From positions 1 through 64,000 of IMG/VR virus record IMGVR_UViG_3300033151_000166: DNA of 64,000 nucleotides. One strand, 5' to 3'. The position numbers and the translations under genes were made by a program. Origin of the DNA: a virus. Within the stretch, counting starts at the first letter, position 1. The number at the start of each line of letters is the position of its first letter. The notes below the pieces were generated by a model. It was given only the letters and a program-made list of their open reading frames with translations. It was not told the DNA's origin and did not search any database. Shown in pieces: positions 20,944-38,574 of this stretch.

Positions 20944-20948
20944 TGATA

Positions 20949-20961
20949 CTTGTGATATAAT
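20949..20961 (+). promoter_or_regulatory. Extended -10 promoter
   Basis: CTTGTGATATAAT. Confidence 0.8.
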
Positions 20962-20985
20962 TATATATATCATAAGAAAGGATGA

Positions 20986-21837: not shown

Positions 21838-22051
21838 TCTACTAGTCTACGACGTCATAGACGTACATGACTTCAAAGAGTTAGAGATGATACTTGATGA
21901 ACTCGAGGTCACTCTAACCGACTGTTGGGTTATCAAGAATAGACTCGAAGCTTTCGAGCTTGATGCTCTATCTAAGACAGACCCTAACAATATGGCTGCA
22001 AGCTTTGCTAAGACGTGTGAGCTTGTAGTACAATACTATCAACGATTCTAA
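21686..22051 (+). CDS. Hypothetical protein (true start probably near 21806-21822)
   Basis: The 3' part fills the gap to the next gene; the 5' part overlaps the Lar gene. Confidence 0.55.
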   Translation: MVTMILMVNVVVAMIETTGTMSVVNVMYVYHYAVPIVMQSMPGTLVSTAIDLLVYDVIDVHDFKELEMILDELEVTLTDCWVIKNRLEAFELDALSKTDPNNMAASFAKTCELVVQYYQRF

Positions 22052-22061
22052 AGGACGGACT

Positions 22062-22460
22062 ATGATGAACCAAAAACAAATGAGAGACCTAGACTACTTC
22101 CTATCACGTGGTGTGCTTGCAGGCAGTAGAGCCTGGTCAACTAACTTCAAGGCTGATGCTGACTATGATATCTTTATGTACTGGGCAGATGTACCAGATG
22201 ATATTAAACGTAGTGACAGCATCGTTAACTATGGTCAAGCAGCTGGAGTGATCTCAGTATTCTATGTCATCACTGCTGAAGGTGAGACTATCAACGTACA
22301 AACAGTGAAAGACCCTCAAACTTTATACAAGTTTAGACTGGCGTCACTAATCATGAAGCAGCTGTTCCCTATCAATGACAAGGTCAAACGTATCAAGCAC
22401 TGGCGTCATGCACTGACCATGGCAAATGTTCAACCCTACAGAGAATACACGACTGACTAG
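22062..22460 (+). CDS. Minimal nucleotidyltransferase (Pol-beta superfamily)
   Basis: LAGSRAW...DADYDIF = hGS-x-DxD motif. Confidence 0.7.
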   Translation: MMNQKQMRDLDYFLSRGVLAGSRAWSTNFKADADYDIFMYWADVPDDIKRSDSIVNYGQAAGVISVFYVITAEGETINVQTVKDPQTLYKFRLASLIMKQLFPINDKVKRIKHWRHALTMANVQPYREYTTD

Positions 22461-22518
22461 ACTACCCTCTTCACAATTACCCTATAGTAAAGTGTATACA
22501 CTTTACTAAGGACTCACA

Positions 22519-23535
22519 ATGGCATTGGCAATCATAGATGGCAATAACGGCTTATACGATGGCAACTCATACCTCTATGATGCCCACTACTACTATGACA
22601 TAGGTCATATGACACAGTACTCAAAGATACCTTCATCTGAATACCTACAGTACAACACTGGTGGCACGCACGAAGGTATACCTAGATACTTTGACGGTAA
22701 CGTAGAGCTTATAACCAATGCTGATGGCAGACAACCTCAGCGACCATTCAAGGGTCTAACACAAGACGGTATACTATTCCAGATACTAGAGACACTTAAG
22801 GGTTGGCCTAAGGATAACTCTAACATCTTTGTGTACAAGAACAAATATGGTGAGGTAGAGCTGGTACAAGCGTATGCAGTTGGTGGTACACAAACAGTCG
22901 TGTCTCATATGCTATGTTTTAATGATAACAAATATAGAAACCATGATACTTATAACCTTCGCTACGCAACTAAGTTCTTGAATGCTAATATTCCTAATCG
23001 CAATGCAGTTCCACTCACTACAACAACCAAGACACCTTGGGACTCGACACTGCAAACACCTGATCGTACTGAGTGTTATATGCTACGTGGCAGCCATAAG
23101 CTATGGAAGATCAACAACAAGTACTATGATGCCGTGGGAAATCAATTAGCTGCAATGGCCCTGGCATCACCAAGAGTCAATGAACTTATATATGCTACCG
23201 ATACAGGTAAACCATTTGAAGGCGTAGTACCTCAACACCTAATATACGAAGCGGGTGCCGCCTATGATAGTTATGGCACTAACTTAGACATACCATTCAC
23301 ATACTCATTCGATGAGATAGTACTATCTAGACAAGAGAAATCACTCAAGGGACCACTCAATATACGTGGCTTATACTACTGGTGTACACTTGAGTTTGCT
23401 ACTAATCCTACTGGTGTTACTGGTCTTTATAAGATCAATAGCTATTTAGAGACTGACATAAGTCGTCTACCATCACGTGATATGATGGTTGGGATTGAGC
23501 ATAATAAAGATGTAGTGATTACCTCAACAAGTTAA
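22519..23535 (+). CDS. Hypothetical Tyr/Gly/Thr-rich protein
   Basis: 338 aa; AAGGA RBS. Confidence 0.7.
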   Translation: MALAIIDGNNGLYDGNSYLYDAHYYYDIGHMTQYSKIPSSEYLQYNTGGTHEGIPRYFDGNVELITNADGRQPQRPFKGLTQDGILFQILETLKGWPKDNSNIFVYKNKYGEVELVQAYAVGGTQTVVSHMLCFNDNKYRNHDTYNLRYATKFLNANIPNRNAVPLTTTTKTPWDSTLQTPDRTECYMLRGSHKLWKINNKYYDAVGNQLAAMALASPRVNELIYATDTGKPFEGVVPQHLIYEAGAAYDSYGTNLDIPFTYSFDEIVLSRQEKSLKGPLNIRGLYYWCTLEFATNPTGVTGLYKINSYLETDISRLPSRDMMVGIEHNKDVVITSTS

Positions 23536-23545
23536 TTACTTACAA

Positions 23546-23558
23546 CTTGTGATATAAT
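23546..23558 (+). promoter_or_regulatory. Extended -10 promoter
   Basis: CTTGTGATATAAT. Confidence 0.8.
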
Positions 23559-23577
23559 ATAATTTAAGGAGTTACAA

Positions 23578-24198
23578 ATGGCTGATACAGGACTTTTATT
23601 ACGCGGGGATCTATTCAACAATATCTTTATAGACCCAGTCGTTACACGTGAAATAGCTATTGCTGGGGCTTGGCTTAGTGCTGGTACTGACAATGGTACT
23701 GGTGGAACTGACGTACACTATCTGAATCTAGCAGCGCTTGCTAAGATAGGAAAATTGAATGATGATCAAGGCTCTAGCGATGCTGGCCTTAAGACTTCCG
23801 ATCTTCCGATCACTTTCGACGGTGGACTATTTAACCAGCAACCAGAAGGCATCATCGTTGATGAGAACTTCATGTTGTACTTCGCAGCTCTAGGCTTTAA
23901 AGAAGTAACAGAGGACAAGCTGACATTCTTGGATGACAGCTTCCTTGACCTACCGTATCTAAAGTTCCTCAACTATCTACCAGATGTAGCTGCAACAGCA
24001 GTTGATATCACTGTTACTTGGAACCAGGGTGTTAAAGCTCAGATTACCAATGAGACGAGTGGCACTGCCCTAGGCTATGCTACGACCTCTGGTTCCCCTT
24101 ACGTATATCCAGTTGCACCAGCAGCTAATGATATTATTAGTGTTGCAATGATTGATGGTACTTTCAATGCAGCTAAGAAACAAACTATAACTATTTAA
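23578..24198 (+). CDS. Hypothetical protein, C-terminal beta-sandwich-like segment
   Basis: AAGGAG RBS; 206 aa. Confidence 0.7.
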   Translation: MADTGLLLRGDLFNNIFIDPVVTREIAIAGAWLSAGTDNGTGGTDVHYLNLAALAKIGKLNDDQGSSDAGLKTSDLPITFDGGLFNQQPEGIIVDENFMLYFAALGFKEVTEDKLTFLDDSFLDLPYLKFLNYLPDVAATAVDITVTWNQGVKAQITNETSGTALGYATTSGSPYVYPVAPAANDIISVAMIDGTFNAAKKQTITI

Positions 24199-24206
24199 GG
24201 ACCCTT

Positions 24207-24512
24207 ATGAATAAAGCTTACAAAGATCTCGTGGACGGACTAGCTCAAGTCGGTGATGCACTCGTTGCAATTGGTGAAGATCCTACACCAGCACCTATTA
24301 AGTTACTTGTATCTGAACTGGTTAATAAACTTAACCTCAACAATGGCGATGCTGTTGACACTCTAACAATGTTGCGCTATGCCGTTGATAATGATGATGA
24401 AACACTGACTAAACTCACTGCTTACATCACTACTAAACCAGGTGAAGCTCCAGTTGCTGAAGCAGTTGTTGAACCTGAACCAGAAGCTGAGCCTACACCT
24501 ACTAAGGCTTAA
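24207..24512 (+). CDS. Hypothetical acidic protein
   Basis: AAGGA RBS; EP-rich tail. Confidence 0.7.
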   Translation: MNKAYKDLVDGLAQVGDALVAIGEDPTPAPIKLLVSELVNKLNLNNGDAVDTLTMLRYAVDNDDETLTKLTAYITTKPGEAPVAEAVVEPEPEAEPTPTKA

Positions 24513-24514
24513 GC

Positions 24515-24748
24515 ATGCACCCTATGGACTTATGCCCGGCGGACTATCCGGCATCAGAAGACTGTAAAAAGATCTTCTGTGAATACCGTAACAAGAAGGG
24601 CAAATGCTCCTTAGACATACAGCTTGAGAACCGCCCTTATGAGGTGGCTGAGATAGCTGATATCCTACAAATCTCTCGTCAACGCATCTGGCGTCTATAT
24701 GACTCAGGTGTTGCAAAGATGAAAAATCTAGTTAACCGGTACTATTGA
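24515..24748 (+). CDS. Sigma70 region-4-like HTH protein with N-terminal Cys cluster
   Basis: YEVAEIADILQISRQRIWRLYDSGVAKMK resembles RpoD region 4.2; four Cys in the N-terminus. Confidence 0.7.
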   Translation: MHPMDLCPADYPASEDCKKIFCEYRNKKGKCSLDIQLENRPYEVAEIADILQISRQRIWRLYDSGVAKMKNLVNRYY

Positions 24749-24777
24749 TAATTAAAGCTCTCGAGCTTTTTTATCAT
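24747..24777 (+). terminator. Intrinsic terminator
   Basis: AAAGCT-CTCG-AGCTTT stem followed by a T run. Confidence 0.5.
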
Positions 24778-24779
24778 TA

Positions 24780-24792
24780 CTTGTGATATAAT
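24780..24792 (+). promoter_or_regulatory. Extended -10 promoter
   Basis: CTTGTGATATAAT. Confidence 0.8.
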
Positions 24793-24819
24793 TATACATA
24801 TCAAAAGTAAGGATAAACA

Positions 24820-25035
24820 ATGGAAATTCCAATGCAGTCAGTCGAGAGCTCAAACATCGACTCAATCGGTTATGATCAAGACAGTGAGACTCTTTATGTA
24901 GAGTTCAAATCAGGTATTACATACAAGTACGAGAATGTCCCATTCTATAAGTACACTGAACTAATGGATGCTAACAGTGTTGGTCGCTATCTCAATGCTG
25001 AGATTAAGGGCGCACATGAGTATTCCAGACTATAA
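24820..25035 (+). CDS. KTSC domain protein
   Basis: VESSNIDSIGYD...LYVEFKSG..YKY.NVP...LM.A.SVGRYLN..IKG. Confidence 0.92.
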   Translation: MEIPMQSVESSNIDSIGYDQDSETLYVEFKSGITYKYENVPFYKYTELMDANSVGRYLNAEIKGAHEYSRL

Positions 25036-25345
25036 ACTTGAGTTCAGCTGCTGGGACCTAAAAGATAAGCACTTGAAAGAGTACAACATCTGGTACTACG
25101 GCACTGACTTAGGTATCATCTGTATGAAGGTGGTAGATGGCGACTTAGAGATACATAACATCTTTATTGATGAAGCTTACAGAGGCAATGCTCACGGAGC
25201 AAGCTTAGTGAGTCAGTTAAGAGTTTATGTTGATCGGGTAACAGCAGTGGACGTAGTTCCAGATGCTGAAGGTTTCTGGGAAAAGATAGGCGTAGATATC
25301 ATTAGACACCCTCACTTTCTTGGCGATCAAACTATTGAAGGATAA
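25016..25345 (+). CDS. GNAT-family acetyltransferase
   Basis: IHNIFIDEAYRGNAHGASL acetyl-CoA motif A; AEGFWEKIG. Confidence 0.85.
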   Translation: MSIPDYKLEFSCWDLKDKHLKEYNIWYYGTDLGIICMKVVDGDLEIHNIFIDEAYRGNAHGASLVSQLRVYVDRVTAVDVVPDAEGFWEKIGVDIIRHPHFLGDQTIEG

Positions 25346-25348
25346 GAT

Positions 25349-25579
25349 ATGAAGGCAGTTACACTAACTAGTCTAGGTTTAGAAGATTATAAGCCTGAGA
25401 CGATTGAAGACGAGATATCTAAGCGAGCTACTAACTTTGCTCGTTATGCTATGGCAGATGTAGAGTATGCACTGCAAGTCCTAGGTATGAAGATGGACGC
25501 CGAGCAGTACGAGCAAGCCTTTAGAGCTATGATGGTTCGTAAAGCTAAGAACGAGGTTCGTAAGTATAATGCAGGATAA
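25349..25579 (+). CDS. Hypothetical protein
   Basis: AAGGA RBS. Confidence 0.65.
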   Translation: MKAVTLTSLGLEDYKPETIEDEISKRATNFARYAMADVEYALQVLGMKMDAEQYEQAFRAMMVRKAKNEVRKYNAG

Positions 25580-25754
25580 AATAGTTATATCTAACTTGAT
25601 ACACTTTATGGAGTTTATCAAGAGAGAGGTATATACAGCTGAGATACCAGAGAATAAGAAGGCTCTGGTAGCTAAACGAATGCAAGACCTAGCTAAACAA
25701 GGCTATGACTTGGCAAAGAATGGTGCTATAACCATTACTATAAAGGAAGACTAG
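25569..25754 (+). CDS. Hypothetical protein
   Basis: Overlapping operon ORF. Confidence 0.6.
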   Translation: MQDKIVISNLIHFMEFIKREVYTAEIPENKKALVAKRMQDLAKQGYDLAKNGAITITIKED

Positions 25755-26012
25755 ATGTATGCAAATGATATGAAAGACGGTATGGCCATTAAGATGACCC
25801 ATGGTAGAGAAGGTCACTGTCGTGACAACAAGAGAGGTATCATTAGAGTAGTTGAGGTACCAGTATTCGGTGGTCAACAAGGCACTGACGTTGGCTCATG
25901 CTATGTAGACGAGATTTTGAAGATTCAAGACTTCGAGGGTGAGTGGCATGCTATGGAGTTAACCAAAGCACATAAGAAGACACTTATTGATATTAGAAAC
26001 GAGGGCTGGTAA
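25755..26012 (+). CDS. Hypothetical protein
   Basis: AAAGGA RBS. Confidence 0.65.
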   Translation: MYANDMKDGMAIKMTHGREGHCRDNKRGIIRVVEVPVFGGQQGTDVGSCYVDEILKIQDFEGEWHAMELTKAHKKTLIDIRNEGW

Positions 26013-26311
26013 TGTTTGACTGGAAAGAGCTTGAAAAGTTGGTAGACGATGGTCGATCACCACTGGCTGAAGACTTGATCAGAACAGATGAGAAAGCAGT
26101 TCATGCTTTTATCTTAGCTCGTTACTTGATGAGTAATAACAAAATCGGGTTCATCATGCTACTAAGCTTGATTGATCGTCGCGAGGTGTCTGTAGTCATT
26201 GCAGCACATCAACTGTGGATGATCTTTAACCTCAAACAGTTGAAAGACATGGCAACTATAGCATATGAAGAGGCTCCAGAGCTATTTGTTAGACCAGAGA
26301 CTCAAGAGTAA
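26012..26311 (+). CDS. Hypothetical protein
   Basis: TAATG coupling. Confidence 0.65.
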   Translation: MFDWKELEKLVDDGRSPLAEDLIRTDEKAVHAFILARYLMSNNKIGFIMLLSLIDRREVSVVIAAHQLWMIFNLKQLKDMATIAYEEAPELFVRPETQE

Positions 26312-26327
26312 GCACTCCACGAGAATA

Positions 26328-26340
26328 CTCGTGGTATAAT
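26328..26340 (+). promoter_or_regulatory. Extended -10 promoter variant
   Basis: CTCGTGGTATAAT. Confidence 0.7.
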
Positions 26341-26466
26341 ATAATTTATAGAGGATATTTGCTGATGTAAATGTCCTCTTAGATTATATCACAGACTAAG
26401 AACTGTGCGGTATGGCTCACGGATTGAGCTTAAAAGTTAACATTTAATCGAAATGGAGGTTGATAA

Positions 26467-27429
26467 ATGGCGTATGAATCAAAAGAGTATGGAAGTTTTC
26501 TTTCAGCTAAGAAGAAGTCTAATATAAATGGCGTGGCACTGTTAAAGTCCAATAGTAATTTATACATTGAAGAGAAATTTGATGGTCACCGTCTTGTCAT
26601 CAGCAAAGTAAATGGTATTTACAGAGCGATGACTAGAGGTGGTAAAGATAAGATGGATATTATTCCTCATATCGAAGCAGCTCTAGAACTAATGGAGTTA
26701 CCAGATGATACGATCATTGATACTGAAGCTATTGTCTTGGACGCAGAAGATCGTTGGGCAGCTACACAGTCTGAACTTGGATCCCATGGCGCTTGTACTA
26801 CTGCTGTCTCTATTATTATATTTGATATTCAGCGTTGGGCGGGTGTAGATCATTCCACAAGCTTCTACCTAGATCGTAGAGCAGTCGTTAAAGAGTGGGT
26901 CGCTGATCACTCTATCAATTCGCGGAAGCCAATTGATAAGACTGAGTCTACGAACTTTGTAGAGACTAACGTTCATTATTCCAGAGCATGGCCCGTATCA
27001 GCATACGAAAGCCACTGGAATAGAATTGTTACAACTGGTGGACGTGAAGGTTTAATGCTTAAAGACAATGCATCTAATCGTTATAACTATGGTTGGACCA
27101 AAGTCAAAAAGCTTATTGAAGTAGACTGTTTTGTTATTGGTACTACCAAGGGTAAAGGTAAGTATGAAGGTATGATCGGGGCTCTTGAAGTCGCAGTATA
27201 CAATCATGGTACTATCTATCCTATAGGTAAGATAACTTCTTTAGGCGACTTACAAAATCGTGCTGAAGCAACTCAATTAGCTATTGATAACAACCTTAAA
27301 TTCAAGGTTCTAACAGTTGAATGTAATGAGGTCACAAAAGATCTTAAGCTACGTCACGGTGTATTCGTTAAGTGGTACCCAGACAAGCTTAAAGATGAGT
27401 GCTTACTAGACCAGCTCAAGGAAGACTAA
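26467..27429 (+). CDS. lig: ATP-dependent DNA ligase
   Basis: EEKFDGHR (motif I), IIDTEA, IFDI, EGLMLK, WTKVK and a C-terminal OB fold. Confidence 0.93.
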   Translation: MAYESKEYGSFLSAKKKSNINGVALLKSNSNLYIEEKFDGHRLVISKVNGIYRAMTRGGKDKMDIIPHIEAALELMELPDDTIIDTEAIVLDAEDRWAATQSELGSHGACTTAVSIIIFDIQRWAGVDHSTSFYLDRRAVVKEWVADHSINSRKPIDKTESTNFVETNVHYSRAWPVSAYESHWNRIVTTGGREGLMLKDNASNRYNYGWTKVKKLIEVDCFVIGTTKGKGKYEGMIGALEVAVYNHGTIYPIGKITSLGDLQNRAEATQLAIDNNLKFKVLTVECNEVTKDLKLRHGVFVKWYPDKLKDECLLDQLKED

Positions 27430-27618
27430 ATGACACATAATGGATGGTTCGTTAACCCTCATAATGCTAATTTAGCAGTGAACTTAGAGCAGGCATCTAC
27501 TCTAGACTTGAAAGACAATAAGGTCATCATTAGCGGTATCAGAATTTGGACTTTCGAGTCTGACACTGTAGCCGCTAGAGTTTTCGAACAGATGATTAGG
27601 ACTGCTCAGCAAAAATGA
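27430..27618 (+). CDS. Hypothetical protein
   Basis: AAGGA RBS. Confidence 0.65.
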   Translation: MTHNGWFVNPHNANLAVNLEQASTLDLKDNKVIISGIRIWTFESDTVAARVFEQMIRTAQQK

Positions 27619-27647
27619 GCTAACAATTACAAGTAGCATAACAACTA

Positions 27648-27660
27648 CTTGTGATATAAT
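27648..27660 (+). promoter_or_regulatory. Extended -10 promoter
   Basis: CTTGTGATATAAT. Confidence 0.8.
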
Positions 27661-27727
27661 ATAAATTCAAAAGAGTATTGGTGCGGACAACGGACTGAAA
27701 TCTTTTATCAAAAAACAGGAGTCAATT

Positions 27728-28228
27728 ATGACAAAGACACAATTAATCGCAAGAGCAGCAGGTCTGGGTTTACCAGTAGAAGACAAAGATACAAAAGAGG
27801 TACTTTTAGAGAAAGTATCAAACTTTTTCATCGAAAACGATGACAAAGAGGCGCTAGTATCTTTCCTTGAAGAGAACGGTTTCACTCTTGATGAAGAGGG
27901 TAACGTTGTTAAGAAGTCAAAGCGTGGTAGTCTTGGTGAGAACCCAAATACTAAAGCTTTCCATACGATCAAAGTACTTCAAGATGAGACTCTTGCTGAA
28001 CTATCTTATGCAGAGCTTGCTAACTACCTTAAAGAGACTGAGGGTGTTGAAACTACAGCTAACTCTATCGCTTGGTATGCTAACTGGCTTAAGACTAAAG
28101 GCAAAGAGTGTGTTGCTCGTGCTAAAAAGTCTAAGAAAGCTGACAAAGCAGCAGCTGAAGCAGCAGAAGCAGCAGAAGCAGAAGACGCTCCTGAAGTCGA
28201 AGAGACTGAAGAAGCAGCAGAGGTTTAA
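27728..28228 (+). CDS. Putative HTH DNA-binding protein with basic patch and acidic tail
   Basis: VLQDETL..LSYAELANYLK...TTANSIAWY; AGGAG RBS; paralogue of 18127-18528. Confidence 0.65.
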   Translation: MTKTQLIARAAGLGLPVEDKDTKEVLLEKVSNFFIENDDKEALVSFLEENGFTLDEEGNVVKKSKRGSLGENPNTKAFHTIKVLQDETLAELSYAELANYLKETEGVETTANSIAWYANWLKTKGKECVARAKKSKKADKAAAEAAEAAEAEDAPEVEETEEAAEV

Positions 28229-28712
28229 TCCTCTCTTCACGGCTTCGGCCGTGCATATGGTCAATGACCACCAAATTCGCTGGTGCTTCCCAGACTAAAC
28301 GAAGCTATGTTAATTTATGATAAAGTTATTGAGGGTCTAGCCATCCTCAGTACGTTTGTTCAATGCAGTCCTAGTGGTTTATCCACATTTTCTCCTAGGG
28401 CTTCTAGAGTAAACTATAACATCACTGTGTGATTTTTGATTTGAGTTCTCAGAACATAGGCCCTCATCCTCCTATGTTCTCTAGAGCTCGTCATCTTAGG
28501 TCTCGTACACCTTAAGACAGTTCTACCTGCTATGGGGTAACAACATAGACGAGTGTTCTGATCCCGATTAATACGATTAAGAAAGGCAAACAGGTCGTGC
28601 CTTCACACTCTCGGGTCACTAAAAGTCTCATACCATCTCTAGGTGACCCGGTATTATCCAATCAACCTTCTTTCAATACTTCCCTGACATAACGCCTTTA
28701 GTTAGGGAAGAT
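28229..28712 (+). ncRNA. Putative structured non-coding RNA (array of ~10 hairpins)
   Basis: No long ORF. A cUUCGg tetraloop hairpin and several stems with G-U pairs that work only on the plus strand. Confidence 0.6.
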
Positions 28713-28737
28713 CTCATATCAAGCAAATCTATTCATA

Positions 28738-28750
28738 CTTGTGTTATAAT
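28738..28750 (+). promoter_or_regulatory. Extended -10 promoter
   Basis: CTTGTGTTATAAT. Confidence 0.8.
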
Positions 28751-28779
28751 AATTTAAACTAAAACTCAAAGGCTAGATA

Positions 28780-29355
28780 ATGAATATTACTGATACAGTG
28801 GAACGTCAATGGAATTGGCAAAAGACAATGAACTCGGATTTTGATACTATGTACTTGGCAGCGATCGAAGAAGTTGGTGAGCTCGTAGCAAGCTTTGGAT
28901 ATGCAGACTGGAAAAAGTCAGAGAGAGATACTCAGAACATTCTAGTTGAGTCAGCCGACTTATTTATCTTTGTTATCAACTGTGCATACTATGCTAAAGA
29001 ACCTATTAAAGGTCAACTCAATCCTCATATGACACCTATCGGTGACGATCGCAAATTTGCTCAGACACTCATTAGAGCACTGTCAGAGAACGATATGGAC
29101 TATCTAATCAACATTCTATTTACTGAGTACCCAATGGCATATGACTATGTAATGGCTAAGCAAGCACTTAATGCTCTACGTCAAGATCATGGCTATAAGA
29201 CTGGTGACTACATTAAAAACTGGGGTACAGATACTAAACCATACGAAGACAATAGAGCTTTATCAGCACTACTTGGTCGTGGTTTAAACTACAATGGTAT
29301 GTACTTGGAACTAAACACGCAGTATACTGCAATGATGACTACTAGACTAGGATAA
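28780..29355 (+). CDS. dut: Dimeric all-alpha dUTPase (possibly dCTPase-dUTPase)
   Basis: EEVGEL..SFGYADWKK, VESADLF and KQALNALRQDHGYKTG.Y.K.W...EDN motifs of the Campylobacter/trypanosomatid-type family. Confidence 0.88.
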   Translation: MNITDTVERQWNWQKTMNSDFDTMYLAAIEEVGELVASFGYADWKKSERDTQNILVESADLFIFVINCAYYAKEPIKGQLNPHMTPIGDDRKFAQTLIRALSENDMDYLINILFTEYPMAYDYVMAKQALNALRQDHGYKTGDYIKNWGTDTKPYEDNRALSALLGRGLNYNGMYLELNTQYTAMMTTRLG

Positions 29356-29358
29356 ATC

Positions 29359-29535
29359 ATGGCAACAAGTGCAAAGAAGGTTTTGAAGATAGATGCTCAC
29401 GGTCAAGTAGCCGGAACGTATCTATCAGCAACTGAAGCAGCTAAAGATGTAGGCGTTACACCTCAAGCTATCTCTAATGCCTGTAGATATGGTATTAAGG
29501 TCAAAGGCACAAGGTGGATATATGCACGTACTTAA
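29359..29535 (+). CDS. Stand-alone NUMOD1/IENR1-like HTH protein (58 aa, not in ORF track)
   Basis: KKVLKIDAHGQVAGTYLSATEAAKDVGVTPQAISNACR...KGTRWIY; AGGA RBS. Confidence 0.75.
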   Translation: MATSAKKVLKIDAHGQVAGTYLSATEAAKDVGVTPQAISNACRYGIKVKGTRWIYART

Positions 29536-32287
29536 ATACTACCATGTAGACCACAAAGATAAGTGGCATATTGTACCTGAAAGCCAGATACCAGTCAATG
29601 CTAAATATGAGTCAGTCATGTACCTTAAGTATAGAGCTGAAGATGTTGAAGCAAGTGGCGAGCAACAAGAGTATTGGGGTCCAATGTACATTGACCTTGA
29701 TAGCGAAGACGTATTAATAGCCTTAGCTGATATGAGAGAGATCTTAACTTACTTAGACCTCAACTTTAATATCCAAGAACCTAACTATAGAATATATGCT
29801 AGTGGTAGTAAAGGCTTTCACCTAGAGATTAATCCATATCTATATATGGATGGTAAATTCAAAGTAGCTCTACCTCTACGTTACAGAGCTATGGCTGCTA
29901 GAATTAAACAAGATCTTGGTGATAGAGTCTGTATTGACATGGGTGTATACTCACAAGGTAAGGGTAGACAGTGGCGTAGACCAAACGTCAAGCGTGAGAA
30001 TGGCAACTATAAAGTCTGGTTACCAAGAGCGGAGTTTAACAAGTTAGACTTGGATAAACTAAATGATGTAGTTAAACAGCCAGGCTTGGTAGCACCAATA
30101 TTTGAAAAAGTAATGGTGAATGAATTGCTTAAGTCCTGGTTTGAATCTACTAAGAAACTAGTTGAAATGGCTAAGCCATCAAAACCTGTACCAGATAACG
30201 TAATCCTAGATACTGAGACTCCTGAGTGTGTCGTTAAGTTAGCTAGGAATAAAGATGTTAAAGGTAATGTTAATTCAAACCTTCTAGCTATGCAAGCTAT
30301 CAGTTATGGTATAGCTAGAGCTTGGAACGTAGATCAGATTATATCATATAACCGTGAGTTTATCAACAACTACCGCTCATCACAGTATAAAACTGCAGCG
30401 GCTTTTGAAGATCACTTTAGAGGTTTATACGACTATGCATCTGAAGCACCAGACAAATTTAAGTTTGGTTGTAAGATGATGCTATCTTGTGTAGACTCAG
30501 TCGACTGTAACTCTTGTGCCATTAAGATCGGCGAAGACGCAGAGAACATGGTTGAAGGTATTATTGTTAAAGATGGTCACTACTATCTTATACCTGATGA
30601 CCCTGATCAACAACCAAGAAAACTATCTAATTTTACCATCGACTTAAGATCAATGACTTATATGGAAAGTGAGCTATACTCTGAAGAGCCACCAGTATTA
30701 GATATAAAATTTAGTAGTCCAAAGAACGCCACCAGAGGACTATGGTCAGAGAGCAAGAAGGTCAAGCAAGATCTTTTCGCAAGCAAACAGGCGTTCACTA
30801 AAATACTGAGCTTAGAGCTAGCTTACTTTGGCTCAGATAAGGACTTACAGATGTTGAAACTAGCTATTATGCATGCCAGTGACCCCAAGAAGATACTACA
30901 GGTTGAATACACTGGGTTATACTGGAAAAATGATGAGTGGCACTTTGTCACTAAAGACGGTTCTATGTCTCTTAACGGGACTATTGATCTTATCAAGACT
31001 ACAGCAGGTGCAGCGGCAGCTACTAAGACTAAGCTTAACTTTGAGTCTGAGCGCCCACCTAGACCTGACGAGATTATAAAGTACTTTGATACTCTAGCTG
31101 AGATCAACTCTAGTATCGTAACAGTTCCACTTATCACTTGGTTCTTTGGAGCATTCTTTAGTCCGCACTGTATGACTATGAATGAGCCAGCACCAAGTCT
31201 ATTTGTTACGGGTTCACATGGAGCTGGTAAAACTCAGTCTATTCTACAGATGCATAGACTGTTTGCACCAGACAGACCATCGTTTCCTTCTATTAGTAGT
31301 ACAACAGCTTTCTCTATGAATAAGTTCTGTAGCTCGACTAACCTGATGCCACTCATATTTGATGAGTTTAAACCTTCAGCTAACACGTCTAAACGTGGTG
31401 AAGAGGGTCAAGTATCTCAAGCTATTCGTGCTTCATACAATAAAGGCTACGAGTCTCGTGGTACTAAGAATAGAACAGTTGAAGAGACTCCTTTCTTGGC
31501 ACCTATCGGCTTTATTGGTGAACAACAAATTAATGAGGGTGCAGTTCAAGATCGTATTGTTCTAGTACACATGGATAAAGCAACTCACTCTAGAAAAAGA
31601 TCTGATGCTCTGGAAGATTTGAAACGTCTTGATATTGAAGTCATTGGTGCTCACTTCCTAGAGTTTGCTATGCGTGTACGTCCAGAAGAATTTGTTAATA
31701 AGGTTCTAAGCTATGATAAGCAGTTAGAAGACAAGTATAACGGAGTCTTTGATAATAGACCACGTAGAAACTTAGCTAATCTTATGACTGTAATGGACTT
31801 GATTGAGCAGTATGTATTACTATATACAAGTGATGAGTCTTTGGTAGAGAAGTTGGCCGGTATTATGAACGAGTATGTTAGCAGCTTCAATAGTCACTCT
31901 ACTAAAGTATACAATGAAATGCGTGGTATGGACGATACAGTTCAAAGCCTTAATTCATTGAATGACCTTGCCGATCTCATTAACCCTAATCTAGGTGATT
32001 TGGCACTGATGAGAAATAGACAGTATACTATTGAGGATGGCATCCTATACATTGATGTAGCAGCTTGTTATACTAACCTCAGCATCTATATCCAGAAGAA
32101 TAGATTGAACTTGTATCTAACAGACAAATCTAGCTTCTTGATGCAGCTTAACCAGAAGAACTATGTAACTAAGAAGATGTTCAAGTCAGATAAGATTATT
32201 AGTGGCAGACAGCGTATGCTAGTTGGTATCAACTTAGAATTAGCTGAAGCTAGCAGTGTTGTTCTAGACAACTTTAGTAGGAAATAA
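29522..32287 (+). CDS. AEP primase-helicase fusion
   Basis: YIDLD, SGSKGFH and RxPN AEP motifs; Cys cluster; GSHGAGKT Walker A and LIFDEF Walker B. Start likely ATG 29522. Confidence 0.88.
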   Translation: MHVLKYYHVDHKDKWHIVPESQIPVNAKYESVMYLKYRAEDVEASGEQQEYWGPMYIDLDSEDVLIALADMREILTYLDLNFNIQEPNYRIYASGSKGFHLEINPYLYMDGKFKVALPLRYRAMAARIKQDLGDRVCIDMGVYSQGKGRQWRRPNVKRENGNYKVWLPRAEFNKLDLDKLNDVVKQPGLVAPIFEKVMVNELLKSWFESTKKLVEMAKPSKPVPDNVILDTETPECVVKLARNKDVKGNVNSNLLAMQAISYGIARAWNVDQIISYNREFINNYRSSQYKTAAAFEDHFRGLYDYASEAPDKFKFGCKMMLSCVDSVDCNSCAIKIGEDAENMVEGIIVKDGHYYLIPDDPDQQPRKLSNFTIDLRSMTYMESELYSEEPPVLDIKFSSPKNATRGLWSESKKVKQDLFASKQAFTKILSLELAYFGSDKDLQMLKLAIMHASDPKKILQVEYTGLYWKNDEWHFVTKDGSMSLNGTIDLIKTTAGAAAATKTKLNFESERPPRPDEIIKYFDTLAEINSSIVTVPLITWFFGAFFSPHCMTMNEPAPSLFVTGSHGAGKTQSILQMHRLFAPDRPSFPSISSTTAFSMNKFCSSTNLMPLIFDEFKPSANTSKRGEEGQVSQAIRASYNKGYESRGTKNRTVEETPFLAPIGFIGEQQINEGAVQDRIVLVHMDKATHSRKRSDALEDLKRLDIEVIGAHFLEFAMRVRPEEFVNKVLSYDKQLEDKYNGVFDNRPRRNLANLMTVMDLIEQYVLLYTSDESLVEKLAGIMNEYVSSFNSHSTKVYNEMRGMDDTVQSLNSLNDLADLINPNLGDLALMRNRQYTIEDGILYIDVAACYTNLSIYIQKNRLNLYLTDKSSFLMQLNQKNYVTKKMFKSDKIISGRQRMLVGINLELAEASSVVLDNFSRK

Positions 32288-32288
32288 T

Positions 32289-33722
32289 ATGACTTCCTTG
32301 GCAATGACTCCCTTCGATTATCAACTGGAAGATATGAAATTCTTAATATCATCTGGTAAAGCCGCATTGACACACGAACCTGGGGTTGGCAAAACCTTTG
32401 GTGCGATGTTAGCACTTACATATATAATCGAAAAGTCCGGCGGACAGGCCCTAGTTGTTATGCCACCTATTTTACTAAATACTTGGTATGAGAAATTCCA
32501 TGAGTACTTTGATACTGATCTTAAGATATTTGTCTACAAAGGTTCGCCGAAAGAGCGTAAAGCGATCAAATTAGAGAACCATGACGTCGTCTTAGTAAGC
32601 TATGATTTATTGCAGCGAGACTATGAGTCGTTCAGAAAAATTCTATGGAAGTCAGTTACCATAGATGAAAGTAAGTATATCAAGGTTGGCACTGTCACTA
32701 AGTCTAAGAAGACTGGAAACATGAATAAGTTTGGTTGTGTACAGTCTTTAGCCTATAGAGCTGAGTATGTGACCATAATGAATGGGACACCCTTGACGAA
32801 ATCACCTATGGATTTATTCCATATCTTTCAATTGATTAACCCTTCTATGTACATAACTAAGAAGAACTTCTTAAGAACCCATGCTAGATATGCTAAGGAT
32901 GATGGCGGTTTCCCTATGATCATTGGTTGGCAGAAGTTAGAAGCACTGCAAGTACGCCTTGATAGAGTCAGTAGACGTATGATAAAGTCACAGGTACTGA
33001 AAGATCTACCACCTAAGCAGTTAATCATTAAACAATTTGACCTTGAACCTAAACATAGTAAGACCTTAAAAGAACTGATAGACTTTGGTTTTGTAGAGCT
33101 CAAAGACTCTAGTAAAGAATTCCTATTCTTAGAGGGTACTTCTTTATTGATGCAAGCTAGACAAGCTATGTTTGATCCTAGTATATTAGGTTTACCTGGT
33201 GAGTCAGCATATGTAGAGGTATTACAAGATATCTTAGAGGACCTAGGTGATGAGCAAGTGATTATTTTTGCTCACTTTCATGGCACTATAGATATTATAC
33301 GTAAGTTACTAGAGAAGATGAAGCTATCACACACTGAACTGCACGGTAGAGTCACAGCAGCTAAGCGAGATGGAGCAGTGACTGCATTTAAACAAAAGAA
33401 AGTCCAAGTACTACTAGCTAATGCTCTATCAGCTGGTGTAGGTCTAGACTTTCAACAAGCAAGGAATGTTATCTTTGCCGAGCTAGATCATCAAGTAGAT
33501 AGTTTCTGGCAAGGTATGGATAGAGTACATAGACCAGGTCAAACTGATGATGTAAATGTCTTTGCACTGGTAGCTAAGAATACACCAGCCGTAGCTCTAA
33601 TGAGAGGTATTAAAACTAATATAGACTATGTATCAGCTGTACTTACTGGTAAAGAAGACGCTTCAGTCCTATATAACAATAGAATTACTGAGAAAGAGGA
33701 GAGAGAATGGATGGCTTTGTAG
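32289..33722 (+). CDS. SNF2-family (SF2) helicase
   Basis: PGVGKT, TIDES, NGTP, GVGLDFQ and QGMDRVHRPGQ motifs. Confidence 0.92.
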   Translation: MTSLAMTPFDYQLEDMKFLISSGKAALTHEPGVGKTFGAMLALTYIIEKSGGQALVVMPPILLNTWYEKFHEYFDTDLKIFVYKGSPKERKAIKLENHDVVLVSYDLLQRDYESFRKILWKSVTIDESKYIKVGTVTKSKKTGNMNKFGCVQSLAYRAEYVTIMNGTPLTKSPMDLFHIFQLINPSMYITKKNFLRTHARYAKDDGGFPMIIGWQKLEALQVRLDRVSRRMIKSQVLKDLPPKQLIIKQFDLEPKHSKTLKELIDFGFVELKDSSKEFLFLEGTSLLMQARQAMFDPSILGLPGESAYVEVLQDILEDLGDEQVIIFAHFHGTIDIIRKLLEKMKLSHTELHGRVTAAKRDGAVTAFKQKKVQVLLANALSAGVGLDFQQARNVIFAELDHQVDSFWQGMDRVHRPGQTDDVNVFALVAKNTPAVALMRGIKTNIDYVSAVLTGKEDASVLYNNRITEKEEREWMAL

Positions 33723-34276
33723 AGGACCTAATAGAAGAGCATATGTATCTAGTAAATATCATAGCTCATAGATACAAGAACGCTAGTAATGGTTTAGGCT
33801 TTAATGATTTAGTACAAGAAGGTTCTATAGGTCTTATAACCGCAGTGGATTATTATGACCCCACCTACGGTACTAAGTTCTCTAGCTATGCTGGTATCTG
33901 GATTAAGCAGTCGATGACTGATGCCTTGACCTCTAAGTCTAGAGTACTGCGTCTACCAAGTCACATAGTATATAACAAGTTTAGAATCCAGAAGTTTAAA
34001 GATCAATTTCTAGCTACTAATAACTTTGAACCTGATGTAGACATGATATCAAAATCATTGGTTATAGACCGACACCTTGTTATACAGATACTAGACCTAC
34101 AGACTGATAAGTGTGGTTTAACTGAACTAGACTTTGAAGATCAAAACTCTGAAGACATGCTAGAAGTGGTTGAGCAAGATGACAATTTCGACTTTGTCAT
34201 TAAAGGGATGAAGCGTCTCAGTACTAAAGAGCAAATTGTCCTAGCACTAAAATTTAACCTAATGAGCAAGATTTAA
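33707..34276 (+). CDS. RNA polymerase sigma70-family factor lacking region 4.2
   Basis: DLVQEGSIGLITAVDYYDPTYGTKFSSYAGIWIKQSM...RVLRLP (region 2); stops after region 4.1. Confidence 0.9.
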   Translation: MDGFVEDLIEEHMYLVNIIAHRYKNASNGLGFNDLVQEGSIGLITAVDYYDPTYGTKFSSYAGIWIKQSMTDALTSKSRVLRLPSHIVYNKFRIQKFKDQFLATNNFEPDVDMISKSLVIDRHLVIQILDLQTDKCGLTELDFEDQNSEDMLEVVEQDDNFDFVIKGMKRLSTKEQIVLALKFNLMSKI

Positions 34277-34291
34277 GAAACGGTTAAAATA

Positions 34292-34304
34292 CTTGTGCTA
34301 TAAT
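34292..34304 (+). promoter_or_regulatory. Extended -10 promoter
   Basis: CTTGTGCTATAAT. Confidence 0.8.
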
Positions 34305-34365
34305 AATAACATCAAAAGTGAATGTGCACCTTTTGAGTAAAAATTTCAGCACACGGAGACAAAAC

Positions 34366-35001
34366 ATGGCAAAAGTAAAACAAAACATTGAAGATATGGA
34401 CGTAACAGCTGAAGTAGAAGCACCTGTAACAGATGTAGTAGTAACAGGTACGGCGGCAACGCCAGTAGCATCAGGTTCACAGATGCAACAAATGAATACA
34501 GAATTTGAAGGTCTTGATACTATCGCTAGTTTCATGCCTTACTTTATTCTTGATGGCTCAGAGCTACTTAACAAGACTGATAACTCAGCGCATCCAGCGC
34601 TTGAGGTGATTCTTGAAGGTGGTAAACCAGTATGGCAACTATGGGACGAAAGTTCTAACTTGATTGCTGAGAGTTTTGATGGAGCAGTTGATACAGCTGG
34701 TCGTCCTATGGCTGGCTTACTTGCAGCTGAGAAAGAAAAAGCTCAGAAACCTCAAGATATGAAGATCCAAGCACGTTATGAGATTTACTTCTTGTGGGAC
34801 TATGCTGAAGAAGGTGAGAAACTTACAAAGATTTCACTGTCACCAGCATCTAAGTTCCAGCTTGCTGATTATATCAAAGAGCTTTCTAAAGATGGTCTTA
34901 AACTATCTGATGCAAAGACAAAGATCACTGCTGAGCGTGTAGTTTCTAAGCAAGGCTTCCGTTACAGCCGCGCTTCATTCGAGAACATCGGAGACGCATA
35001 A
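34366..35001 (+). CDS. Putative single-stranded DNA-binding protein
   Basis: Replication-module position; OB-like C-terminal half (KISLSPAS...TKITAERV...YSRASF); GGAG RBS before ATG 34366. Confidence 0.5.
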   Translation: MAKVKQNIEDMDVTAEVEAPVTDVVVTGTAATPVASGSQMQQMNTEFEGLDTIASFMPYFILDGSELLNKTDNSAHPALEVILEGGKPVWQLWDESSNLIAESFDGAVDTAGRPMAGLLAAEKEKAQKPQDMKIQARYEIYFLWDYAEEGEKLTKISLSPASKFQLADYIKELSKDGLKLSDAKTKITAERVVSKQGFRYSRASFENIGDA

Positions 35002-35156
35002 TGCGTGCCGGTGGTTCTGGCTGTGTAGGCCGACCTGATGGTGGCAATGAGCGTGAAGGTAAAGCCCGCTTTACTAAGACGCCAATGACACTACAACGTA
35101 AGATCAATCGCCGCAAGAGTAAAGCGGCTCGTGCTAGTCGTAAGGCTAATAGATGA
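35001..35156 (+). CDS. Small basic protein (51 aa, not in ORF track)
   Basis: TAATG-coupled; ends RKINRRKSKAARASRKANR. Confidence 0.65.
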   Translation: MRAGGSGCVGRPDGGNEREGKARFTKTPMTLQRKINRRKSKAARASRKANR

Positions 35157-35365
35157 TGGATATGTCAGCAGCAGTTTTAATGGAAGTTATGACTGCTGAT
35201 ATGATGGCTAGAAGAGGGCAGATAAGTCATACTTATACGCGCTTAATGAGTCAACTATCTGGGCTACATGCATCTAAGGCTAGTCATAATCCCTGGCTAT
35301 TCACAGTGTTAAACTGTATCACGTATAAGGCAAGCTATGAGCGTAATCTTAATAGAGGGTCCTGA
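35153..35365 (+). CDS. Hypothetical protein
   Basis: ATGA overlap; AAGG RBS. Confidence 0.55.
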   Translation: MMDMSAAVLMEVMTADMMARRGQISHTYTRLMSQLSGLHASKASHNPWLFTVLNCITYKASYERNLNRGS

Positions 35366-35849
35366 CAAGTGTGGTAAAACCACGCTAGTCAAGAGTCTAA
35401 CTACGGCTGGTCTACTTCCAAGAGCAAAGCATCTACCTGATGGTCCTTTTAGACCATTGGTTATAGATGGTGCAGTGACTGGTTTAGCATCCACTTTCTT
35501 ATTCTTTGCTAATGAACAACAGTTCTGGCAAGACTATGCAACCACTCCAGGCGACTTCGTCTGTGATCGCGGTATGATATCTATGTTAGTCTATCAAGGC
35601 TATCTTCTTGGTAACATGCCACCTATTGTTATTCTTAACCTGTATAAGACGATCATGACTGATCTGAACATTACAGAGATTGTATACTTGACAAATGAAC
35701 CTTTTGAAGAGTATGATGACAATGACTTATTCGAAGCTTATGGGTACACGCAGATACGTGCCTGTTATGAAGACGCTATTAAACTTGTAGAGTCTAACTT
35801 CGCAGATATAAAAATTACCCGCTTAGATCTTTCTGTAGACACACATTAG
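35337..35849 (+). CDS. Thymidylate-kinase-like dNMP kinase
   Basis: ILIEGPDKCGKTT P-loop; CDRG..S..VYQG. Confidence 0.88.
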   Translation: MSVILIEGPDKCGKTTLVKSLTTAGLLPRAKHLPDGPFRPLVIDGAVTGLASTFLFFANEQQFWQDYATTPGDFVCDRGMISMLVYQGYLLGNMPPIVILNLYKTIMTDLNITEIVYLTNEPFEEYDDNDLFEAYGYTQIRACYEDAIKLVESNFADIKITRLDLSVDTH

Positions 35850-35941
35850 ACGCTTAACAGCGTCTTCGGGTACTTTTCAAATATTCTAATTTAAACTTAA
35901 ACTATATGAAAAGTACCCCACCAATTTTAGGAGCTTAAAAA

Positions 35942-36670
35942 ATGTTATTTATTGATGCTAACAACTATGTTAAAAGAATTTATCACGGCGGTGGAAATCC
36001 TTACACGCTAATTCATGACCTACTCATGAAAAATCTGGACGTACAAATTCAATTTGTATGTGACACTAGTTCTAGTCGTAAGCCTAGACGAGAGATACAC
36101 CCTAAGTATAAGTTTGGAAGAGACATGGGTGATGACCCAGTATACTTTGAAGTTATGGAGAACTGTCAGAACATAGCTAGATGCTTTGACAATGTAACAG
36201 CTCTAAACATCATTAACGCTGAGGCTGATGATTACATCGCTAATAGTGTATCAAAAGGTGACACTGTTATCTCTAATGACCGCGATCTTTGGCCTTTAGT
36301 AAAAGACGGTGTTGAGATACTTCTTAACGCTTCTATGCGTGTAGATGAAGTGGCAATGGTACATAAGTTTGACACGAAAAATCCAGACCACATTTATCTC
36401 TATAAATGCTTAGTTGGTGACACATCAGACAAGATCCCAGGTAAACGTGGATTTGGTAAAGCTGCTTGGGGTAAATTATCTGGCTATGAAAGAGATAAAG
36501 TATGGGAAGCATTACGTACTGGTGAGGCGCATGACCTAATCAATGAGCAGGTTCTTATGTGTTATAAGCTAGCGATGCCTTTACCTATTGGCTCTTACGA
36601 AATCGAGCAGCTTGAAAACCTTAATAGAACTTCGGTTCAATATTGTGAAGACAAAGGAATTATCTTATGA
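35942..36670 (+). CDS. 5'-3' exonuclease / RNase H (FEN family)
   Basis: FIDAN, RREIHPKYK, EADD, SNDRDL and GDTSDKIPG..GFG motifs. Confidence 0.92.
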   Translation: MLFIDANNYVKRIYHGGGNPYTLIHDLLMKNLDVQIQFVCDTSSSRKPRREIHPKYKFGRDMGDDPVYFEVMENCQNIARCFDNVTALNIINAEADDYIANSVSKGDTVISNDRDLWPLVKDGVEILLNASMRVDEVAMVHKFDTKNPDHIYLYKCLVGDTSDKIPGKRGFGKAAWGKLSGYERDKVWEALRTGEAHDLINEQVLMCYKLAMPLPIGSYEIEQLENLNRTSVQYCEDKGIIL

Positions 36671-38574
36671 TCTATAACAAATCAAATATACAGGATGCAC
36701 TTGCCATCCTTAAAGACAGTCCAGAAGAGATCTGGTCTATTGACCTCGAGACATACAACCCTTACGAGAACGCCTGGTTTATGGAACTTAGCGCTAAGCA
36801 AAGACCATTGAACCGTATTGACAGTAAGATCGTGTCACTTCAGCTGGCTACACCATCTGGTATTGAGATGTACTTTGACTTTGCTCACAAGCAAGAGGGT
36901 GAAGACTTACGTCTTGACTATAAGTATCTAGGCGAGATCCTAGATCAATGTAAGTCCAATGACTTGATCGCTCACAATGCAGCCTTTGAGTATGGAATGA
37001 TCTTGCGTCATGGCTACGACTGCCCTCAAGATTACTATGATACTATGATTATGGGAGTACTATACAATGAAAACATGGCACAAGGTCTTAAGCCTACGAT
37101 TAAAACTCGTTTTGGTCACATCATGCCTAGCTACGCTGAGACTGTTGGTGACGGTACTATGGCTGATATCACTGCCATCGAAGGTTATGAATATGGTATG
37201 TCTGATGCTGATTGGACTCTTAAGCTTTATGACTGGTATGCTGAGCGCATTAGCATGGCCTATTATGAAACTTTTGAAATGGATACTATTAAAATTATCT
37301 CTCACCAGTACGCCGGAGGACAGGCTATCGATACAGACAGACTTGCAGAAATTCAAGCAGAAGATATCTTGGCTCGTGATGTAATCTTTGACAAGTTTCC
37401 TGAACTAAAAGAGATAAACATGAACAGTCCTAAGCAGGTAGCAGTGTTCTTATACGATGAGATGGGTCTTAAACCTTTTAAAGTCTCAAAGAAAACAGGA
37501 GCTCCGTCCACAGACAAAGAGTCACTGTTTGAGTTGGAGTCAGAGTATGGTAAGCAGTATCCTATTGTTAAAGCCTTCGCTGATATTCGTAAGCTTGAGA
37601 CAAGATTGAAACTATACTATCGTCCTTACCCTAAGTTGATCTATCCTGATGGACTACTACACTCAGAGATACGCCAGACTGGTACAGTTACAGGTAGATT
37701 TAGTTCTAACTCACCTAACACTCAGCAAGTAGCTAAGCGTGGTGATGGTAAGAAGGTTCGTGATGTATACATACCTCATAAAGGTCACGACTGTATCGTA
37801 TGTATTGACTGGTCTCAGATTGAGATGCGTATTGCAGCTCACATGTCTAACGACCCTAAGCTAGTTGATGGATATCTAACTGAGAAAGATATGCACACAC
37901 TGTCTGGTACAAACATCTCTGGTCTAGAGTATGATGAGATGGTAGCGCTGGTCAATGAAGAAGACTCAGAACAGAAAGCTAACCGCCAAAAAGGTAAGAC
38001 TCTAAACTTTGCATCACTATACCTAGCATCACCAATGCGTCTAGCTAAATTTGATCTATTGGATTGTACAGTGCCAGAGGCTGAGCTATTCTTATCAGCT
38101 CACAAGCTAGGTTATGAGGGATACTTCTATAACTATGTTAATAAAGTATCTCGTGATGTTAATACTAATGGCTATGTTCAAACACTATTTGGTCGTACTA
38201 GACACTTGCCTGATATTAAGTCACCGATCAGAGTTTTAAGAAGTAGTGCTGAGACTCAAGCGTTGAACGCTACGATACAGGGAACAGCTGGAGATATAAT
38301 GAAGCTTAGCTTAAACACTCTATGGTCTGAGAAACTTCTATTCTTGAAGGACTTCAGATTTATTATGCAGGTTCATGATGAATTTGTATTTAGTTGTACT
38401 CATGAAGCCGCAGCTGAATTAATGCCTAAGGTCAGAGAGATCATGCAGCGTGTACCTAAAGGTTTCAGAGTACCTATCGTTGCTGAGGTATCTATAGGAC
38501 CGAACTTTGGTGATCAGCGCGAGCTACACGGTGATCTATCACTTGAGAATATCAAGCGCAAACTCTCTTTGTAA
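36667..38574 (+). CDS. polA: Family A DNA polymerase (3'-5' exonuclease plus polymerase)
   Basis: IDLET and AHNAAF exonuclease motifs; TGRFSS, DWSQIEMR, KTLNFASLY and QVHDE polymerase motifs. Confidence 0.96.
   Translation: MIYNKSNIQDALAILKDSPEEIWSIDLETYNPYENAWFMELSAKQRPLNRIDSKIVSLQLATPSGIEMYFDFAHKQEGEDLRLDYKYLGEILDQCKSNDLIAHNAAFEYGMILRHGYDCPQDYYDTMIMGVLYNENMAQGLKPTIKTRFGHIMPSYAETVGDGTMADITAIEGYEYGMSDADWTLKLYDWYAERISMAYYETFEMDTIKIISHQYAGGQAIDTDRLAEIQAEDILARDVIFDKFPELKEINMNSPKQVAVFLYDEMGLKPFKVSKKTGAPSTDKESLFELESEYGKQYPIVKAFADIRKLETRLKLYYRPYPKLIYPDGLLHSEIRQTGTVTGRFSSNSPNTQQVAKRGDGKKVRDVYIPHKGHDCIVCIDWSQIEMRIAAHMSNDPKLVDGYLTEKDMHTLSGTNISGLEYDEMVALVNEEDSEQKANRQKGKTLNFASLYLASPMRLAKFDLLDCTVPEAELFLSAHKLGYEGYFYNYVNKVSRDVNTNGYVQTLFGRTRHLPDIKSPIRVLRSSAETQALNATIQGTAGDIMKLSLNTLWSEKLLFLKDFRFIMQVHDEFVFSCTHEAAAELMPKVREIMQRVPKGFRVPIVAEVSIGPNFGDQRELHGDLSLENIKRKLSL

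Follow-up and report, generated by a model that had tools for sequence, protein, structure and literature searches.

A conserved truncated sigma-70 factor and a separately encoded region 4.2-like protein in an uncultured marine phage: a possible two-piece sigma factor

Can the domain 4 of a sigma-70 family factor be divided naturally between two polypeptides? Domain 4 of sigma factors is treated as one unit, which both binds the beta-flap of RNA polymerase and reads the -35 box. The question is raised by two genes in a virus genome, IMG/VR record IMGVR_UViG_3300033151_000166 (75,676 bp, rated complete by CheckV, here G000), of which the first 64 kb form the window analysed. A sigma factor gene at 33707..34276 on the plus strand stops short of the helix-turn-helix (HTH) of region 4.2, and a small open reading frame (ORF) at 24515..24748 on the same strand encodes a protein resembling the missing piece. 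A sequence-only reading of the window had noticed this arrangement and offered two interpretations: a two-subunit sigma assembled in trans, conceptually like gp55 and gp33 of phage T4, or a -35-independent sigma accompanied by a mimic of sigma domain 4 that occupies the beta-flap. The analyses described here confirm the observation and partly support the interpretation.

The product of the sigma gene is 189 amino acids (aa) long and comprises regions 2.1–2.4, a probable region 3 and region 4.1, without regions 1.1/1.2 and without 4.2. Pfam Sigma70_r2 (PF04542) matches it with 53.8 bits against a cut-off of 24 bits, and there is exactly one region 2 match in each of two complete genomes, G000 (in a six-frame search) and its relative G001, a second complete phage of 74,014 bp with terminal repeats. 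The region 4 models of Pfam (PF04545, PF08281) give no match in the sigma gene or after it. Sigma70_r3 gives no match either, yet profile alignments to RpoS and SigA, and to full-length relatives, are continuous through region 3 and the region 3.2 linker. When a profile of the sigma and four relatives is compared with solved RpoS and SigA chains (E about 1e-24), its alignment covers RpoS residues 94-281 and extends from region 2.1 as far as the equivalent of the “...RFGLL” that closes region 4.1, with sigma residues ~160-187 falling on region 4.1 of RpoS and relatives. The sigma models of NCBIfam are left with 36-63 C-terminal positions uncovered. The proposal that this protein ends at region 4.1, just before the HTH, thus holds. 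By inspection of the RpoS/SigA alignment, the Gln and Thr of region 2.4 and the His of region 3.0 are retained, so that a -10 element of the TATAAT type is to be expected.

The early end of the chain is shared by its relatives. Four relatives from the protein database (62-82% identity) are every one 189 aa long, and a profile search adds a sixth sequence of 183 aa (46% identity). The six distinct sigmas (46-100% identical) share an end point that lies 3-4 residues past a K-F-[GN]-[LI] motif, and the five closest sequences are identical at 19 of their last 30 positions, the region 4.1 segment being conserved like the rest of the protein. The next relatives, at 36% identity or less, are 233-330 aa long and carry PF04545 in most cases; identity to full-length phage and bacterial sigmas is 30-36%, and the 256-aa sigma of Bacillus phage Deep Blue, which matches at 33%, has 43 residues beyond the aligned part. 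Furthermore, a 914-nucleotide (nt) contig from an independent sediment metagenome spans 33644-34400 with zero differences and zero gaps, and a contig of the same run covers 24532-24916, in the region of the small gene, again with zero differences or indels. The common end point of the six sigmas, together with the identical independent contig, indicates that the truncation is conserved, and excludes the sequencing error that the sequence-only reading had considered, as well as decay. A reading that takes the sigma gene for a pseudogene in decay or for an artefact of assembly, and the small ORF for an unrelated HTH protein, could draw on the sub-threshold Pfam score of the small ORF (see below) and on nothing else. 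Against it stand the six homologues alike in length and end, the conservation up to the stop codon, the identical contig, and a 95% profile-profile probability for the small protein, and we regard it as extremely improbable.

A hidden remainder of the gene, to be reached by frameshift, read-through, an intron or a split intein, was considered and rejected, there being no region 4 signal in six frames other than that of the small ORF. It is further opposed by the position of the small gene, which lies upstream of the sigma gene and not downstream, and by inspection of the protein ends, neither of which carries intein-like motifs. The sigma stop codon is followed after 15 nt by a promoter-like site (34291..34304, plus strand), which marks the end of the gene unit, as had been seen from the letters of the window.

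The 77-aa product of 24515..24748 consists of an N-terminal four-cysteine module (C7, C17, C22 and C31, followed by an invariant S-L-D) and a region 4.2-like HTH at residues ~40-76. Residues 40-70 match positions 19-49 of the 50 positions of Sigma70_r4 (E 5e-4, 19.9 bits). The small ORF is the sole region 4 match in a six-frame search of the complete 75.7-kb genome, in which Sigma70_r4_2 has zero matches, and the small-protein gene is likewise the only region 4 match in G001. Eight sequences make up the family. All four cysteines are kept in every full-length member, spaced C-x9/10-C-x4-C-x7/9-C, as is a reading helix with S-R-[QH]-R. Sigma70_r4 is the best Pfam family for six of the eight members (E <= 0.01, best E 1e-6), and the most distant member (P0018) has a textbook region 4.2 signature behind a matching four-cysteine module. 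At the equivalents of sigma-70 E585 and R588 the small protein has Q/H and W/Q, respectively; in E. coli, -35 specificity is altered when these two residues are changed (PMC2613000).

An exhaustive HMMER search with the small-protein profile returns only proteins of 55-102 aa, repetitive false matches aside. Scans for distant family members in viral, metagenome and genome contigs gave two short contigs (L011, L012) and nothing usable; of the other loci from these scans, L013 (an ABC permease) and L014 (high in G+C) are spurious and L010 is an ordinary sigma. Among 30 neighbours in a language-model Atlas, 27 are small viral Sigma70_r4 proteins with scores of 0.93-0.94, which we take as a lead only. 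AlphaFold2 models of the small protein were made (mean predicted local distance difference test score, pLDDT, 57 and 67), and the protein is modelled with a helix at 44-51 and a long helix at 55-76 (pLDDT 73-81). Its N-terminal part is poorly defined, and no fold can be assigned to the poorly modelled cysteine module. The two modelled helices are fewer than the three of the usual HTH core.

The two proteins complement each other. Against a 286-column reference profile built from twelve full-length sigma relatives, hhalign places the truncated sigma on columns 42-234 and the small-protein family on columns 236-271 (probability 95.3%, E 2.4e-8), and hence the two abut with one column between them and without overlap. 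The sigma retains exactly those region 4.1 helices that are absent from the small protein. The resemblance of the small ORF to the missing piece, first suggested by eye, is therefore borne out, as is the presence of the four cysteines in front of it. Both genes co-occur in two of two complete genomes: G001 encodes a 189-aa sigma (63% identical) and a small protein (73% identical, cysteines conserved) in unchanged order.

Because the cut is conserved, region 4.1 is conserved, the profiles are complementary and the HTH of two helices is incomplete, we favour a natural two-piece sigma, cut inside domain 4, with promoter recognition split over two polypeptides. We give this reading an even chance of being right. 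According to it, the 189-aa chain would bind core RNA polymerase and read the -10 and extended -10 elements through regions 2 and 3, while its region 4.1 helices would dock on the beta-flap. The two helices of the 77-aa chain would pack on region 4.1 and complete the sigma-4 fold, its region 4.2 HTH would read the box at the -35 position, and the four-cysteine module would serve as a clasp or an additional contact. The resulting holoenzyme would read a TATAAT-type extended -10 with an upstream box, aAGyAA in G000 and GnGTAAC in G001.

These elements come from the phage promoters. The plus-strand arm of G000 carries 12 copies of ACTTGTGaTATAAT at 17.9-38.6 kb (17925-38590), all with a perfect TGTGnTATAAT element. 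One copy, the site ACTTGTGATATAAT at 23545..23558 on the plus strand, heads a three-gene unit that ends in the small HTH gene. Another of the ACTTGTGATATAAT class, at 28737..28750 on the plus strand, heads the unit 28780-34276, which comprises an NTP pyrophosphohydrolase-like gene, the primase, the helicase and the sigma. The site after the sigma stop codon belongs to the same class and has its G001 equivalent at 20550. When the G000 sites are aligned on the -10, G is found at -34 in 10 of 12 (p 4.6e-6), within the box aAGyAA. The eight sites of G001, on the minus strand (20550-37565), read CTy-N4-TATAAT with G.Gt..C at -37 to -31, often GTGTAAC, and have C at -31 in seven cases (p 2.2e-5; box GnGTAAC). 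The sites of both genomes are promoters of the extended -10 type, in which a non-canonical box occupies the -35 position. Between 23400 and 24900, neither of the two promoter-like sites was called by a standard TTGACA/TATAAT scan. Three of the G000 copies stand in tandem (17925, 17997 and 18070).

Such a promoter architecture fits a detachable -35 reader, and it fits equally a sigma that has no need of a -35 contact. The truncated sigma alone might then be a -35-independent factor acting at extended -10 promoters, and the small HTH protein a DNA-binding regulator in its own right, which activates or represses near -35 or serves as a late activator of the RinA/ArpU kind, its likeness to region 4.2 reflecting common ancestry only. 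In keeping with this, the 12 promoters have their perfect TGTGnTATAAT, the sigma keeps the residues of regions 2.4 and 3.0 named above, and the two genes lie in different units 9 kb apart, the small one coupled to the gene of another small protein. Region 4.2 of E. coli sigma-70 is dispensable at extended -10 promoters (Kumar et al. 1993, as cited in PMC2613000), and sigma-A without region 4.2 is active in vitro (PMC3173786). There is also the precedent of RinA, a region 4-like phage late activator that is no sigma (PMC3152322), and viral Sigma70_r4 mini-proteins are common. What this account leaves unexplained is a strongly conserved region 4.1 without an HTH to hold, and a small protein that lacks precisely region 4.1, with profiles that abut at a single column. 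Moreover, an HTH of only two helices would hardly form a stable domain for binding DNA by itself, unless the cysteine module completes the fold. On balance we think a sigma acting alone possible, though less probable than the two-piece factor.

The second interpretation in the sequence-only reading, a sigma-4 mimic on the beta-flap, is weakened. The region 4.1 helices form the surface that binds the flap tip, and it is these helices that the small protein lacks and the sigma keeps. Another account has the small protein act on the host holoenzyme, as a mimic of sigma-4.2 or an appropriator. It would compete with region 4 of the host sigma at the -35 position, or remodel it, and redirect host polymerase to promoters with the non-canonical box, in the manner of T4 AsiA/MotA, the cysteine cluster perhaps contacting region 4 as in WhiB-like proteins. 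T4 middle promoters combine a host-type extended -10 with a foreign box at the -35 position, and the phage promoters described here resemble them in this. Four-cysteine proteins that bind region 4 of sigma-A exist as well (the WhiB7 structure 7kug is among the Foldseek rows), and the sigma and small-protein genes are unlinked. The small protein, however, has no similarity to AsiA, MotA or WhiB-like proteins; on inspection its cysteine spacing (C-x9-C-x4-C-x8-C), with no G[VI]WGG turn, is not WhiB-like. Without region 4.1 it has no obvious means of docking on the flap by itself, and the truncation of the sigma would go unexplained. An action on the host holoenzyme seems to us decidedly unlikely.

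Several points weigh against a two-piece sigma. The genes are separated by 9.2 kb in G000, in agreement with the roughly 9 kb first noted, and by ~11 kb in G001, and they lie in separate transcription units, albeit with both units behind one promoter class. As both genes stand behind these promoters, a host sigma must fire them first. G000 and G001 are fully syntenic through common ancestry, so that the co-occurrence of the two genes, a check that had been proposed for them, counts as one observation and not as independent evidence. The Sigma70_r4 score of the small protein (19.9 bits) is below the Pfam cut-off of 24.1, and HTH_17 scores nearly equal. Foldseek with the small-protein model lists mostly sigma region 4 chains in its top rows, but with E above 2, which is not significant, and a sequence search of the PDB with the small-protein profile gave no significant match. 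Stand-alone small viral Sigma70_r4 proteins (68-114 aa) form many Atlas clusters, and such a protein therefore need not belong to a sigma. Finally, while the idea of a two-subunit sigma in trans gains from the conserved truncation, the complementarity, the co-occurrence and the lack of a hidden remainder, contact between the two proteins is a proposal made from their sequences. A complex prediction for the full sigma and the small protein, in which a separate alignment was supplied for each, reached a score of 0.14 where the mark is 0.32, a result that counts neither way.

The small gene may also have another partner. An acidic 101-aa protein of unknown family is encoded immediately ahead of it, at 24207..24512 on the plus strand; the two genomes agree in the spacing of the ORFs, and the acidic proteins (81-101 aa) are 62% identical between them. 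In both, the stop codon of the acidic protein lies 2 nt ahead of the small-gene start (stop 9999 and start 10001 in G001). The small gene is translationally coupled to the acidic protein, which may be its real partner, a further point against pairing it with the sigma; alternatively, the acidic protein may join the other two as a third component or serve the small protein as a chaperone. Neither Pfam nor PHROG gives a match for the acidic protein. Its structure neighbours in the Atlas are TerB-like, with low confidence (pLDDT 0.42).

Two-subunit sigmas are known. SigO-RsoA of B. subtilis is one (PMC10141391), and in the Tn916 pair Sig7-Sig8 both subunits associate with RNA polymerase (bioRxiv 10.64898/2026.10.01.756105). 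As in those systems, where both polypeptides are needed on RNA polymerase, the functions of one sigma would here be shared out between a small polypeptide of ~80 aa and a larger one. The cut differs: SigO-RsoA and Sig7-Sig8 are divided between sigma-2 and sigma-4 functions, the small subunit being region 2-like and the large one carrying region 4, whereas here it falls inside domain 4 and the small subunit would be a -35 reader with an extra four-cysteine module. The comparison is one of architecture and not of sequence. The genes of both known pairs are adjacent, in contrast to the 9-11 kb here, which again speaks against a two-piece sigma. No description of a sigma divided between regions 4.1 and 4.2 came up in the literature searches; relative to the known two-subunit sigmas, the cut inside domain 4 and the four-cysteine module are new.

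The analogy with T4 drawn in the sequence-only reading is a loose one. T4 gp55 has a region 2-like part only. T4 gp33, an acidic protein that binds the flap, takes the sigma-4 position on the polymerase without reading DNA, and activation comes via the sliding clamp. What is shared with gp55 and gp33 (plus the gp45 clamp) is a phage sigma without a -35 reader, paired with a second small phage protein. The sigma described here, in contrast, has retained regions 2 and 4.1 and probably 3. The small protein, homologous to region 4.2, is an HTH protein of nearly neutral charge, with 13 basic against 11 acidic residues counted on its translation, instead of an acidic flap binder. In phage SPO1, gp34 is also without part of domain 4, and gp33 is described as an inhibitor of sigma-A-dependent transcription (PMC13401047).

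With group 1-3 sigma-70 factors (RpoD, RpoS, SigA and the Deep Blue sigma) the truncated sigma shares homology over regions 2.1-4.1; in those factors region 4.2 is part of one and the same polypeptide, whereas this chain ends at column 234 of 286, before 4.2. It is also comparable to an E. coli sigma-70 from which region 4.2 had been removed (Kumar et al. 1993, cited in PMC2613000); this variant has no -35 HTH and uses TGnTATAAT promoters. That protein was a laboratory truncation, while the present one is natural and conserved, with the missing piece encoded separately in the genome. The small protein, for its part, is like RinA/ArpU-type activators and viral Sigma70_r4 mini-proteins in being a small, region 4-like DNA-reading part (PMC3152322), and unlike them in having a four-cysteine module in the place of region 4.1; it has no Pfam or PHROG match to the RinA/ArpU-type families. 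WhiB-like iron-sulfur proteins have the pattern C-Xn-C-X2-C-X5-C with G[VI]WGG, from which the small protein departs in its spacing and in lacking both the turn and a Pfam match.

The four-cysteine module is probably metal-binding. That it is a zinc or iron-sulfur clasp by which a detachable -35 reader docks on region 4.1 is an unlikely but consequential idea: if true, assembly of the sigma and a whole promoter class would depend on metal or redox state, and phages could exchange -35 specificity by swapping one 77-aa gene. A natural cut between regions 4.1 and 4.2 would in itself mean that flap binding and DNA reading can sit on separate polypeptides. It would give phages a simple route to re-target or time transcription, and would provide synthetic biology, whose split sigmas have been engineered ones until now, with a ready-made orthogonal two-component sigma.

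The genome in which the two genes reside is small and siphovirus-like. Its plus-strand arm (~13.4-44.2 kb) encodes a ligase, a primase, a SNF2-type helicase, whose gene is overlapped by the start of the sigma gene by 16 nt, a DNA polymerase and an SbcC-like protein, and the remainder of the genome, on the minus strand, encodes the large terminase, the major head protein, a 2188-aa tail protein and a 4181-aa ORF. G001 is syntenic with it over the whole length at about 50-65% protein identity. No close relative of G000 was found among deposited phages, and neither the sigma nor the small protein has a close relative in the INPHARED phage collection. DNA near-identical to the stretch 24400-34400 occurs in hydrothermal-vent, marine-sediment and marine metagenomes of different studies, the vent set possibly being the source sample. 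The phage is uncultured and marine, and no cultured relative was found. Its strong ribosome-binding sites of the AAGGAG type argue against a Bacteroidota host.

No recurring motif was found on the late strand. Ahead of the first late gene, in minus sense, lies a conserved non-coding block (13455-13640) that is ~65-70% identical to the equivalent position of G001 and contains two tandem copies of a 50-bp unit, with starts near 13575 and 13524. The equivalent block of G001 includes GGAAA-T-run and GCTACCA[TC], and the 50-bp element is absent elsewhere in both genomes. Possible roles are those of a late promoter, of a terminator/antiterminator or of a packaging signal. Running from 13395 through the ends of the record to 44172, the late arm has almost no gaps, and the single 4181-aa ORF on its minus strand occupies 61456-64000 of the window and runs on to 74001 of the genome.

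Two further genes lie near those discussed above. The gene following the sigma (34318-35001) encodes 227 aa from a GTG at 34318, an ATG near 34366 being the likelier start. It is 76% identical to its G001 counterpart across the last 170 residues and has faint matches only (E 0.016-0.1), including one to a transcriptional-regulator PHROG at residues 167-221. A second small ORF (29359-29535, 58 aa), situated just before the 936-aa primase gene and overlapping its start, matches HTH families weakly (Cro, HTH_3 and NUMOD-like, E 0.03-0.1). In G001, a ~110-bp element is repeated near 40040 and 40400 (in 40001-41000, locus L006), and its end recurs in shorter form near 40640 and 40870; each copy lies directly upstream of a small minus-strand early ORF.

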